64,000 bases of DNA from NCBI GenBank assembly GCA_002633005.1, contig NMRA01000349.1:186001-250000 (forward strand), given 5' to 3'. This stretch comes from Phoronis australis (taxonomy: Eukaryota > Animalia > Phoronida). Below the pieces are notes generated by a model that saw nothing but the letters and a program-made list of their open reading frames with translations, did no database searches and had not been told where the DNA came from. Positions 9,810-38,057 of this stretch are shown piece after piece (position 1 is the first letter of the stretch; the number at the start of each line of letters is the position of its first letter). A program made the position numbers and the translations under genes.

Positions 9810-12800
9810 ATGGCAGGCTACACAGACGAAGGCCTTCTGCACGATATGTTTAGGAGGCAAGCCAAGAGTACTCCTAATGGTGTGGCGGTGGTGTATGATA
9901 ATGGGACAGAAATGACGTACCGTCATCTGGACGAAGTGACTGACTTGTTGGCGCATTATTTGCAAGTGCATGGCGTGGTGCCAGACTCTGTTGTTGGGAT
10001 CTACATGGAGAAGTGTATTGAGTATGTGGTGGCTTACATTGCCACGCTGAAAGCAGGTAAAGATATGTACTTAAGATTTTTCAGTCATCATTAAATTATG
10101 AATTTTTATATGGCCGTTATCTAGTGTAAAATTGTTTATAAAGTTGCCGAAAACATTTGTATGAAATAAATGCCGAATTGCTAATCAAAAAGTTAAAATG
10201 TCACTATTTTCTAGGCGGCGGGAAGGGGGGGGAGTGGTAGGGGTATACTGTATAATGTGATAGCGTTCCTAGGCCCTAAATTCATTATTTGATCATGACT
10301 TAAAGTTATATAATACCTCTGGAATTACTTTGTTAACTTTTAGCTCTATTTCTTGGCAACTGTTCTTTGTGATCGTTTTTCACAATTTCTGTGAAATTTG
10401 GCCTAAAATAGGACCCGAAACCTGGCTCTTGAAGCGCTGGCATCAGGTGGGTAAAAAAGGAAGAACCCCGGCCCATTTCAGCCAACTTTCTTTTTGAAAC
10501 TATCAAAAACTAAAAATATCATGTCTGTACATCGATTTACAAAAAAAACACTGGGATTTAATCTTTTTAAATTAACTCAAAATAATTTTTATTATTTTCT
10601 GTTGTGCTTACATGCAAATTCATACATAGGAAGTGTCTGTAATTCCGTGCTCGAGTATATTATCAACACTGATAAGTTTTTATTGCAAGTTCGCACTTGG
10701 TGACCTCTAAATTCGAACTGTTAACTCTAGCAAAACCCCCAAATTTCGAACTTGGAGCTTTGGTGCTGAAGTTGTCAAGGGCGATCTTGAACTAAATACT
10801 CACCAGCTTGAAGCATTATGCACTTGTGCACGGAACAATAGACAATTATCTGGAGTTGGTGCAAGAATAGAACGGAAAATGCAAAAATGGGTATTTTGAG
10901 TTCGATTTTGTGTAGCAAGACTGGAGCCTGGGTCCAGAATAAAGTTTGCCATTTTTTGTCCTCATGGTGGTTGAAGAGTTGCTGAAAATCCAGTTGGTAT
11001 GGGTAAACAAAATGTCACTTCCTTTGAAACTTATAAATACATCCAGACGTCAGCTACTGTAAAATGTCACCAATTTCAGACAAAAATAATTGCCAACATT
11101 GTCCTCTTTCATTTTTCAAGAACTTTTAATCTTGTTGTGAATGCCCATATTTTTTCAAAACATCTGATGGTAGCTATGCTGCAGAACATGAAAATGCTAA
11201 GTTATTATGGCGCTGCTTATCTTTTTTGAAAAAGATACGAAAACATACAATTTCACTTGTCCGCATATTGTGCCCTAAATTGGTGAGATTTTATCATATT
11301 CCCATGTGTTCTTAGAGACTATTTTATCCTTTAATTATGCATGTAACCCTTACAGTCCCATTATTTTGCAGGTGGCGCCTATATACCCCTGGATATCAGC
11401 TATCCACGTCCACTTTTAGAGTCCATACTTGATGATGCGGAGCCTGCTGTCGTACTAACTAAGGGGTCCTTTGCTACCAATGTACAAGGTGCATTAATAC
11501 TGTTGGTATCTGTGGTGAATTCAATTTATTCATTGACAGCCCCTGCAGCAGCTCTTGGGGACTGGAATGAAATAATCCAAAATCCACAAAGCTCTAAGTT
11601 AGACTGTGCACAGTTGTTCTGACAGAACTTTAGCTTAAATTCATACACAGTTTGTCAGTTGAAATGGAGCATGTCGGCTTTTGCTCAGACCAAGCCCGTG
11701 ATAGTGAAACGTTGTGAATTTAACACTGCATGACATCTATCAAGAATACTTCCATTGCATGATGCGATCTGTGGATGCAGTTGCCCACATTTAAATACTT
11801 TTTGAAGCTTTGTTGCACATCACGCTACAGCATCGGAATGTCCAGCTTTTTGTCAAATGACATGGCTGACGTTGATGTTCGAACGGGTTCAGCTAGTGTA
11901 TTGCCCCCTAGCGGCCATTTTTTGCATCCATGGCCAAGAAGGAGCGCTGTGAAATTTGGCAGATGTGTTCCTGTAGAGAAGGCTGACCTAAATACCGCTG
12001 TATTCCCTAGTGACATTTTTTTGAATTTGCCTTTTTACTATTTGAGTTCGTGAATTTTGTTTCTTGCCCCCTGCCTCTTTGTTTGCCACATTGCACAAAG
12101 GACTACTATGAAAATTGGCAGACGTGTTCCTTATGAGAAAACCATGGCTGAGGCTAATGTGGTGCCTCCTAATGGGAATTTTTTTGCGTCCGCGGCAGCT
12201 GTATCTCCTTAATCCTTGCAGGATATTATTTGTGGAATTGGACATCAGCTGAGTATGAATTTTTGATGGATCTGACTATTTCTAGTGCCTAGTACCGTAC
12301 TCATCTGGTTACCGCCCATGTTCGGCTTACCGCCCATGTTCGGCTTACCGCCCACCCCCTGTTTTTTTAGATTCCCAATTTAAGTGGCCTGGGCTGCGTA
12401 ACCCGGACGAGTACGGTATTTACATTTGCTTATCTTCAGAGTTTCTTAATTGTTTTTCATGAAATTTGACAACAGATGGATGAATCCAATTATTATTGCT
12501 CATCCTCATATTGGACTGTTTTTTTTACCTTTGTTTGTGTGTCTTTTGTGTTCCTCGATGGATTTTCATGAATTGAGGCAAATAGTTTAAAAGAGAGGTG
12601 AGGACACCTTCTAATTTACAGAAATGTTTGACGTATTCTGTGCCATATGGTGGTCATTTTTGTAACACCAATTAACACCCTTAGAAGCTTGTCATTTGCG
12701 ACGCAGTTGCAAGTGCATTTCAATAATACGCGTGCTCTTGTTATAAAAATTTGGTGCATTATATTTCTTACTTAGATTGAAAATGATTTCTGTGCTGGAG

Positions 12801-36800: not shown

Positions 36801-38057
36801 GTACCAAATTTGCAGGTATAGACGGTACTTTTTCAGCAAGTTTTGCAGTACCTGCGCAGTGTCCAATAGGCCCTAAATTTCCATTTTGTCTCCACAAAAG
36901 GCTCACTGCATTGGCCTCAGGTCATCAAAAAGCACACTGTCCGTCTTCCTACAGAAAATTCTGCCTCTTAAAAGGGGGTGGGAATTAGCAGACCAGGCAC
37001 CGGTCTGCAAAAGAGGATCTCTCAGCAATTGTTGGTATGTGCCTGCAGTCACCTTGTCAATATGAGTGACCCCCCCTGTGGTACTTATAGTTGCCATTGT
37101 ATGTTCATCTTGTGTCTTTCAATGGTCAGAAGTAAATTTTTTCCAAAGTTGGCCAAAACTTGTAAAGAGTAATGTGAATTCTTTTTCAAATTAGAATATG
37201 GCATAACAAATTTTTCAACAGGAGTAAAAAGAATACAATTTTACTGGATTATTTGAAAACTCTGTCAAGTACTGTTGTCATAAAAAAACTCACAATGAAA
37301 TTTTGGACGTTTTTGGCAATACAATGGGCACTTGAAAAATGAAGAGTGGCAATTTTTGCTCAGTTTTTAAAATTTGAGGAAACTTTACTCTATCTTTGTT
37401 TGTGCTCAGTACCAGTTCTCACAGGTTCCCTCACTAAGCATGCAGTGTATTTCACACTTGTGCTAAGTGACTACACCTGCATTACATAATAACATTTTCT
37501 TTTAAATAAATATTTTGTTATTGTGCATAGTTTTAATCCACAAACCCATATAAAATCCTAGGTGAGCTCAGAAACATATTATGTGCTTGGAAATAATACT
37601 AATGAACTTTTGTATTGACATGATCGTGTCCATGTCTGCCAGCAAACACTAGAAATCTAAGCCACGCAAGTGGTTGTTTGTATCATAAACCACTGCACTA
37701 CATTGTCCTTTGAAAGTCATGATCAGTTACAAAATAGCGGGTTTTAAATAGCATGCAATCTACACCTTGCAAGTGGTTGGTGTTTACTCATATTGATTAT
37801 TTCTCAGTTTCTTCATTTCAACTTTGTTCAAGGCGTTTTTGTTTGCTTTAAATACACTTTGACACAGAAAAACGTTCTCGTCATCAGTAGCTGTGATAAC
37901 GTTGTGTTTTCAGGCTCAAGACCAGTTTGATGGATCAGGAAACAACAAAGTTTTGGAGCCTGAAGATGTCGCTAATGCAGTCCTTTATGCTGTCACACAG
38001 CCTGAGTATGTGGGCGTGAATGAAATACTCATTGAACCCAGAACTGCTCCCGTTTGA
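9810..38057 (+). CDS. ATRR: NRPS-like A-T-R1-R2 enzyme, ATRR/glycine betaine reductase-like, ~1276 aa, 24 coding exons: 9810-10056, 11372-11488, 14299-14448, 18067-18198, 18539-18710, 19518-19671, 20194-20304, 20477-20695, 21195-21391, 24745-24936, 25529-25738, 26251-26392, 27368-27530, 28584-28699, 28987-29072, 29377-29543, 29730-29955, 31982-32113, 32430-32581, 33167-33375, 34096-34236, 35324-35416, 36405-36563, 37914-38057
   Basis: All introns are GT-AG with matching phases; exons sum to 3831 nt ending in TGA. A-domain motifs: [82 protein letters not shown] domain: FFDLGGHSLL. R1: [30 protein letters not shown]2: [24 protein letters not shown]. Confidence 0.9.
11690..12745 (+). mobile_element. 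Degenerate Helentron/HINE-like repeat
   Basis: Recurrent ATGAAATTTGGCA-type units; 3' end GCAAGTGCATTT...TGCTCTTGTT. A related element lies at ~53650-55040. Boundaries approximate. Confidence 0.4.
12295..12416. mobile_element. Tc1/mariner (pogo/Tc2-like) MITE with TA TSD
   Basis: TA|CCGTACTCATCTGGTTAC ... GTAACCCGGACGAGTACGG|TA, with an internal tandem repeat TTACCGCCCATGTTCGGC (~2.5 copies). Confidence 0.75.
13430..13650 (-). mobile_element. Penelope-like retroelement 3' fragment
   Basis: Translation [22 protein letters not shown] resembles the RKIKEAIxI...NxDxG C-terminus of Penelope GIY-YIG endonucleases; followed by a CTGATGA hammerhead-like remnant. Confidence 0.65.
13710..14013. mobile_element. 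MITE, copy 1 of a GGGGGTCACTCATATTGAC family
   Basis: Inverted ends GGTCACTCATATTGAC... / ...GTCAGTATGAGTGACC; second copy at ~36766-37076 in opposite orientation. Confidence 0.7.
14515..14900 (+). mobile_element. Non-autonomous DNA transposon remnant with a THAP-like N-terminal fragment
   Basis: Imperfect TIRs TAGTACGACGGTC / GACCGTCCTATTCTA; internal translation HCCVVGCN...RHFPT resembles a THAP zinc-finger start. Confidence 0.5.
16390..17300 (+). mobile_element. Decayed LINE reverse transcriptase
   Basis: Broken RT motifs in order: [41 protein letters not shown] (YADD equivalent), [16 protein letters not shown]; many stops and frameshifts. Confidence 0.8.
21403..23781 (+). mobile_element. 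hAT-like DNA transposon with decayed transposase, 13-bp TIRs and a 6-bp TSD (ATRR intron 9)
   Basis: TGATTG|CAGGGTGTCAAGT ... ACTTGACACCCTG|TGATTG. Internal fragment VEDFW...[26 protein letters not shown]...[11 protein letters not shown] resembles the hAT dimerisation domain. Confidence 0.85.
24840..25650 (+). other. Thiolation (PCP) domain; phosphopantetheine Ser codon TCG at 25533-25535
   Basis: [13 protein letters not shown]...[16 protein letters not shown]; the GGHS motif is split by a phase-2 intron. Confidence 0.9.
30670..31311. mobile_element. Degenerate non-autonomous DNA transposon
   Basis: Short inverted ends TTAGGGGGAGC / GCTCCCTAA; no coding capacity. Confidence 0.35.
31476..31830. 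repeat. Degenerate array of CTGCAAAC/TTGCCGCAAA units
   Basis: Many short related units in both orientations; accounts for the stack of spurious ORFs here. Confidence 0.7.
34220..34440 (+). repeat. 39-bp tandem repeat (~5.7 copies) spanning the ATRR exon 21 splice donor
   Basis: Unit TTGACATCAACTGTAAG|GTAGGGGTTGAGGGACACGTGC, read directly from the sequence. Confidence 0.95.
35485..35992. mobile_element. hAT-like MITE with 13-bp perfect TIRs and a 6-bp TSD
   Basis: ATATGA|CAGGGCTTGGAAT ... ATTCCAAGCCCTG|ATATGA; subterminal TTTCCGC repeats. Confidence 0.9.
36766..37076. mobile_element. MITE, copy 2 of the GGGGGTCACTCATATTGAC family
   Basis: CACTCATATTGACAAGGTG ... CACCTTGTCAATATGAGTG inverted ends. 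Confidence 0.75.

Follow-up and report, generated by a model that had tools for sequence, protein, structure and literature searches.

Does the phoronid Phoronis australis carry an intact form of the fungal enzyme that makes choline by reducing glycine betaine, and, if so, what does the animal enzyme act on? The question was raised by a gene at positions 9810-38057 (plus strand) of a 64,000-nucleotide (nt) stretch of the P. australis genome (assembly GCA_002633005.1, contig NMRA01000349.1, positions 186,001 to 250,000; hereafter the window). [quoted passage not shown] Our analysis showed that the gene is an intact invertebrate orthologue of ATRR whose transcript is made and spliced, and by analogy with the fungal enzyme it probably converts glycine betaine into choline.

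The gene was rebuilt from the sequence by hand and checked with a script. Twenty-four exons joined into 3831 nt, yielding a frame of 1276 amino acids (aa) that was free of internal stops and closed by a TGA at 38055-38057. All 23 introns, 172-3618 nt in length, had GT..AG ends, and the GC content was 48% in exons vs 37% in introns. The annotated model, with 24 exons in one frame of ~1276 aa, was therefore borne out.

Transcription was examined in three raw RNA runs from one study, with about a fifth of each run mapped on the locus. Spliced reads covered at least 21 of the 23 introns (1-10, 11, 12 and 15-23), while introns 13 and 14 were not among the junctions listed. The joint between exons 19 and 20, whose absence the annotation had named as a sign of two separate genes, was found at exactly 32581-33167 in all three runs (11, 2 and 8 reads). 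Because these reads span exons 19 and 20, the A-T-R1-R2 gene is one transcript. First mates of spliced reads were almost always on the minus strand, indicating a sense (plus-strand) transcript, given the usual stranded library. Scattered single-letter differences between the exon reads and the window sequence indicated that the reads came from the same species or one very close to it. Read depth ran past the stop codon to at least 38700, which is likely the 3' untranslated region.

Pfam was run on the 24 exon peptides separately, and 14 of them gave a match at E<=0.01. The matches followed the order AMP-binding (PF00501; exons 1, 3 and 5), AMP-binding_C (PF13193; exon 9), PP-binding (PF00550; exon 11), NAD_binding_4 (PF07993; exons 12, 14 and 16) and adh_short (PF00106; exons 20-23); no condensation domain was matched among the 24 peptides. 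The A domain starts in exon 1 (9810..10056; start ATG and N-terminus, aa 1-82) and continues through exon 2 (11372..11488), exon 3 (14299..14448; P-loop motif A3 at residue 163), exon 4 (18067..18198; pocket residues Val203, Phe204 and Trp207), exon 5 (18539..18710; pocket residue Leu246), exon 6 (19518..19671; pocket residues Ile276, Cys278, Leu302, Asp310 and Val311, and motif A5 at 303), exon 7 (20194..20304), exon 8 (20477..20695; motifs A6-A8, with A7 at 400) and exon 9 (21195..21391; C-terminal subdomain). Exon 10 (24745..24936) holds Lys509 of motif A10 and the start of the T domain, whose phosphopantetheine (Ppant) residue, Ser566, lies in exon 11 (25529..25738). R1 extends from its Rossmann motif at 662 in exon 12 (26251..26392) through exons 13 (27368..27530), 14 (28584..28699), 15 (28987..29072), 16 (29377..29543; catalytic Tyr832/Lys836), 17 (29730..29955) and 18 (31982..32113; C-terminal part) to exon 19 (32430..32581), which contains the end of R1 and a linker. 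R2 begins in exon 20 (33167..33375) with a Rossmann motif at 1041 and basic residues of the kind typical of NADP(H)-using short-chain dehydrogenases/reductases (SDRs), and continues in exons 21 (34096..34236; NNAG motif), 22 (35324..35416; catalytic Ser1171) and 23 (36405..36563; catalytic Tyr1184/Lys1188); exon 24 (37914..38057) supplies the last coding part with the stop. All exons are on the plus strand. Exon 1 was joined to exon 2 in the reads, and RNA junctions were seen at exons 2-12 and 16-23; exon 13 had its 5' joint in reads, its 3' joint and the joints of exon 14 were not among the junctions listed, and exons 15 and 24 were covered by RNA reads.

One polypeptide thus combines A, T, a thioester reductase and a C-terminal YdfG-like SDR without a condensation domain, and the Ppant serine and the Tyr/Lys residues of R1 and R2 are all intact, as is characteristic of the ATRR family. 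The domains and motifs named in the annotation stood up to the exon-by-exon Pfam run and the motif check. Between 34220 and 34440, a 39-bp tandem array of 5.7 copies repeats the last part of exon 21 together with its splice donor and reaches into intron 21; it offers several potential in-frame donors, 13 codons apart, and the junctions listed use the first donor only.

The main homologue search, with exon 8 as the query, yielded 117 candidates, including 82 homologous proteins. The named ones came from ten animal phyla: Cnidaria, Xenacoelomorpha, Arthropoda (hemimetabolous insects), Annelida, Mollusca, Nemertea, Brachiopoda, Echinodermata, Hemichordata and Chordata (tunicates). Neither vertebrates nor holometabolous insects appeared among the named rows. 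Forty-seven of the 82 aligned along essentially the whole spliced protein with 42-59% identity, and the full Lingula protein was 62% identical. Further searches gave no homologue with exon 1 (22 candidates), only multimodular NRPSs in the top 150 when exon 8 was compared with a representative library, two ATRR-like rows among the 120 listed in a search aimed at fungal, nematode and diatom ATRRs, and domain-level names only in an Atlas search with a proxy protein. No ATRR structure was found among the best 60 PDB matches listed, the nearest being LgrA/PheA-type A domains, the MxaA R domain and clavaldehyde dehydrogenase.

Two trees were built, both without fungal, nematode, Lys2 or Ebony sequences. 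In the A-T-R1 tree (68 rows), which roughly matched animal phylogeny, the P. australis protein fell in a lophotrochozoan group (FastTree support 0.964) with no resolved sister. In the A-domain tree (38 rows, quick method), it lay within the animal clade (SH-aLRT 99); six ordinary NRPS A domains were split from all ATRR-like rows with a support of 100. The homologues, the placement among animals and the split from NRPS A domains bear out the assignment to the ATRR family. Two extra Capitella teleta paralogues (P0168 and P0219) lack R2 and have Tyr in place of Trp207 and Met at two further pocket sites, possibly a lineage-specific substrate change. Six intronless metagenome loci, probably prokaryotic (L031, L033, L062, L064, L070 and L073), encode an A-T-R1 relative of ~1000 aa whose pocket is ATRR-like, and a separate stretch resembling R2 comes after it, a split form of the eukaryotic fusion.

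The annotation had implied that an ATRR in an animal would be a surprise, which it is not. Invertebrate atrr genes have already been reported (Hai, Huang, Tang; bioRxiv 10.1101/559534), a nematode enzyme has been tested (Zhang et al. 2024, PMC11050029), a 2025 bursatellin paper (PMC11869996) mentions a molluscan homologue of glycine-betaine reductase, and NCBI already uses the name in records for Nematostella and Haliotis. The P. australis ATRR is an ordinary member of a family recorded across invertebrates and is not new for animals. A survey of animal NRPSs (PMC10531068) does not name ATRR in its opening parts, and no survey of the spread of ATRR across animal phyla was found among the papers listed in a literature search that lay outside most subscription journals.

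Several known systems allow comparison. The Aspergillus nidulans ATRR (AN5318; bioRxiv 10.1101/559534) shares with the P. australis protein the A-T-R1-R2 order, the lack of the PheA Asp235 and a catalytic Tyr in both reductases; its Phe201 and Trp204 correspond to Phe204 and Trp207, and an acid occupies the Glu304 position in both. The P. australis protein differs in having Ile276 for Trp270 and Asp310 for Glu304, and in being encoded by an intron-rich animal gene. Lys2 alpha-aminoadipate reductase and bacterial carboxylic acid reductase (CAR) use the same A-T-R chemistry to convert an acid to an aldehyde but lack the second reductase, and it is the extra SDR that separates ATRR from other CARs (Hai 2019, bioRxiv 10.1101/559534). 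The Nematostella vectensis (XP_048589182.1, named 'glycine betaine reductase ATRR' at NCBI) and Haliotis rufescens (XP_046369445.2) proteins, whose ATRR names are database labels and for which the literature search turned up no test, are 56% and 58% identical across their full length and have the same domains and pockets that are the same or differ at one or two sites; both have Trp at the 276 site, as does the Ptychodera orthologue. According to PMC11050029, Meloidogyne incognita MiATRR is likewise an animal protein with the A-T-R1-R2 order and comparable in length (1306 aa), with a pocket that also departs from the fungal one at 5 of 10 sites and has one His/Ile-variable site; unlike the present gene, it belongs to a nematode, is tied to plant parasitism and is backed by yeast rescue and RNAi. 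The diatom Phaeodactylum tricornutum PtNRPS1 (PMC13194791) has the same domain order, the same Asn-Val-Phe-Phe-Val-Trp segment and a non-Trp third cage site (Phe285); unlike the animal proteins, it has Asn/Glu in place of Cys/Asp and is reported to convert tryptophan to tryptophanol.

By analogy with the A. nidulans enzyme, priming of Ser566 would fall to the host's phosphopantetheinyl transferase. The trimethylammonium head of betaine would be held by the A domain between Phe204/Phe205 and Trp207, close to Asp310; the domain would use ATP to adenylate the carboxylate and would then load it on the T domain. With NADPH, R1 (Tyr832/Lys836) would release betaine aldehyde, which R2 (Ser1171/Tyr1184/Lys1188) would turn into choline by reduction, so that the animal would draw choline from its betaine pool. 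Choline oxidation to betaine is usually regarded as one-way in animals.

Betaine binding by A. nidulans ATRR has been ascribed to F201, W204, W270 and E304 (bioRxiv 10.1101/559534). These sites were mapped onto the P. australis protein from the published residue numbers and spacing together with the PtNRPS1 sequence. The pocket numbers published for PtNRPS1 in PMC13194791 (N212, F214, W217, F285 and E319) agreed with its printed sequence in our own count, and the third cage site lies 34 residues from the acid in the P. australis and A. nidulans ATRRs and in PtNRPS1. The ten P. australis pocket sites are V203, F204, W207, L246, I276, C278, L302, D310, V311 and K509, and they are identical in Owenia, Mya, Potamilus, Octopus, Asterias and Macrosteles. 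Mapped in this way, two aromatics of the fungal cage (Phe204 and Trp207) and the acid (Asp310) are kept. The alpha-amino-binding Asp, at the position numbered 235 in PheA, is absent as in the ATRR family; Val203, directly before Phe204, stands there, and all 45 named animal rows have Val or Ile. In these 45 rows, Phe204 was conserved in 44, Trp207 in 42, Asp310 in 45 and Cys at 278 in 44. Trp occupied the 276 site in 26 rows, and Ile (9), Val (7) and Leu (3) made up the rest. On the A-domain tree, the Trp/aliphatic state changed nine times, at least six of the changes being forced by well-supported branches, and it was no more clustered than shuffled labels (220/500). Because the state changes repeatedly without clustering, we infer that 276 is a tolerated site and does not mark a clade-wide substrate switch. 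Alga-type rows, like PtNRPS1, have Asn/Glu where animals have Cys/Asp. In the source data of PMC13194791, the homologue of the diatom Seminavis robusta has the animal-type Cys/Asp pocket, whereas those of Phaeodactylum and Thalassiosira have Asn/Glu; the pocket types are thus not simply animal vs non-animal. The pocket described for the ATRRs of plant-parasitic nematodes (PMC11050029) could fit the animal-type pocket of P. australis ATRR.

The family and domains proposed in the annotation were confirmed, while betaine as the substrate stays at the level of likelihood, with one cage aromatic missing and a diatom relative reported to act on tryptophan. Several points weigh against betaine. Under the mapping by published numbers and the diatom sequence, the fungal Trp270 is replaced by Ile276 and Glu304 by the shorter Asp310. 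PtNRPS1, whose architecture is the same and whose pocket is very similar, is reported to reduce L-tryptophan (PMC13194791), so the substrate cannot be read from architecture alone. Among the papers listed in the literature search, which covered few subscription journals, there was no assay of a purified animal ATRR. The nematode evidence is growth rescue and not product detection, and the ATRR names at NCBI were likely transferred by similarity.

The strongest competitor, which we consider improbable though well worth weighing, keeps the chemistry and changes the substrate: a roomier pocket would accept a larger zwitterion (candidates are proline betaine, beta-alanine betaine, gamma-butyrobetaine, homarine or trigonelline) or an aromatic acid and reduce it to the alcohol. 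The Ile276/Asp310 pair in place of the fungal Trp270/Glu304 would suit it, as would the invariant animal Asp310 and nearly invariant Cys278 where alga-type rows and PtNRPS1 have Asn/Glu, and the activity of PtNRPS1 on tryptophan and salicylates reported in PMC13194791. Against it, the Trp/aliphatic site toggles among single orthologues, the remaining pocket hardly varies across animals ranging from cnidarians to tunicates, as would suit a single small primary metabolite, and MiATRR, despite differing from the fungal enzyme at half of its ten pocket sites, rescued yeast from betaine toxicity (PMC11050029). Somewhat less probable again is a bolder proposal, in which animal ATRRs form a distinct Cys/Asp-pocket subfamily that pre-dates the cnidarian-bilaterian split and the Ile-bearing ones reduce a marine zwitterion or aromatic acid other than the substrate of fungal ATRR. 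If this were true, invertebrates would possess, in the Ile-bearing ATRRs, an NRPS-like pathway not yet described, leading to an alcohol that is choline-like or serves in signalling. Conversion of betaine to choline remains the reading we favour.

Very unlikely by comparison is a pair of adjacent genes, either an A-T-R reductase and an SDR or an aminoadipate reductase of the Lys2 type next to an SDR. The exon 19 frame does continue beyond its donor to a stop, and several database proteins, like the intronless metagenome loci, end after R1; the exon 19-20 reads in all three runs and the 47 single full-length homologues contradict two genes. With the Lys2 model TIGR03443, two proxies with 58-59% identity (P0182 and P0195) scored 397 and 440 bits against a cut-off of 1030, and a second reductase is present, whereas Lys2 has a single one; the proxies also fell far under the cut-off of NF041592, used for comparison with bacterial CAR. 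Clustering with Lys2, which the annotation had named as evidence against itself, is opposed by these proxy scores, the trees containing no Lys2 rows.

For the origin of the gene, 11 intron-containing loci were chosen from 80 metagenome loci, after the intronless loci, near-duplicates, very short pieces and one piece full of indels had been set aside. When the P. australis exon ends were projected on them, 73 of 79 donors fell on GT/GC (82 of 632 at shifted positions) and 72 of 83 acceptors on AG (14 of 664 at shifted positions); the loci had been found via exon 8, which biases the comparison in favour of that exon's two boundaries. Among loci with a coral as best named match, introns 3, 7 and 8 were shared, and with a termite as best named match, introns 4, 7, 8, 9 and 10. 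Judged from these comparisons, the gene is most likely older than the cnidarian-bilaterian split and vertically inherited. Fungal or microbial contamination or recent horizontal transfer, suggested by the fact that NRPS-like genes are best known in microbes, is the most remote of the alternatives, given 23 introns whose positions recur in other animals, ING and CARS2-type neighbours that likewise mark an animal gene, a place among animals in trees roughly tracking their phylogeny, and 55-62% identity to animal proteins vs 39% to alga/protist-type members; the annotation had argued against contamination, and the introns, neighbours and trees uphold it. The two-gene, Lys2 and contamination readings were rejected (on junction reads; on TIGR03443 scores; on introns, neighbours and trees), and even jointly they are highly improbable.

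The neighbours named in the annotation were recovered in part: Pfam identified ING (PF12998, PHD) and cysteinyl-tRNA synthetase (PF01406, DALR_2), while the CFAP97-like gene gave no Pfam match in the two stretches tried. The ING gene (start 45519, minus strand) and the synthetase gene (start 45974, plus strand) are apparently head to head, ~450 bp apart, and in human ING1 and CARS2 lie head to head as well. A 17/34-bp tandem array of ~16 copies lies within the ING gene (42439-42706). Exons of a gene for a major facilitator superfamily-type transporter (300-1249, minus strand; weak PF07690 match, E 0.005) point away from the ATRR gene. Nested transposable elements had also been annotated; one was checked, a 508-bp element in intron 22 (35485-35992) that ends in perfect 13-bp terminal inverted repeats and is flanked on either side by a 6-bp direct repeat. 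Its very high read depth comes from many other copies, and it looks like a high-copy miniature inverted-repeat transposable element.

If animal ATRRs act like the fungal enzyme, invertebrates belonging to ten or more phyla would recover choline from a major osmolyte at the cost of one ATP and two NADPH. This idea has been sketched in print for the family (Hai 2019; Zhang 2024), and P. australis adds an intact, expressed example. With the common exchange of Trp for an aliphatic residue in its pocket, the P. australis ATRR would serve reasonably well as a test of the substrate question.

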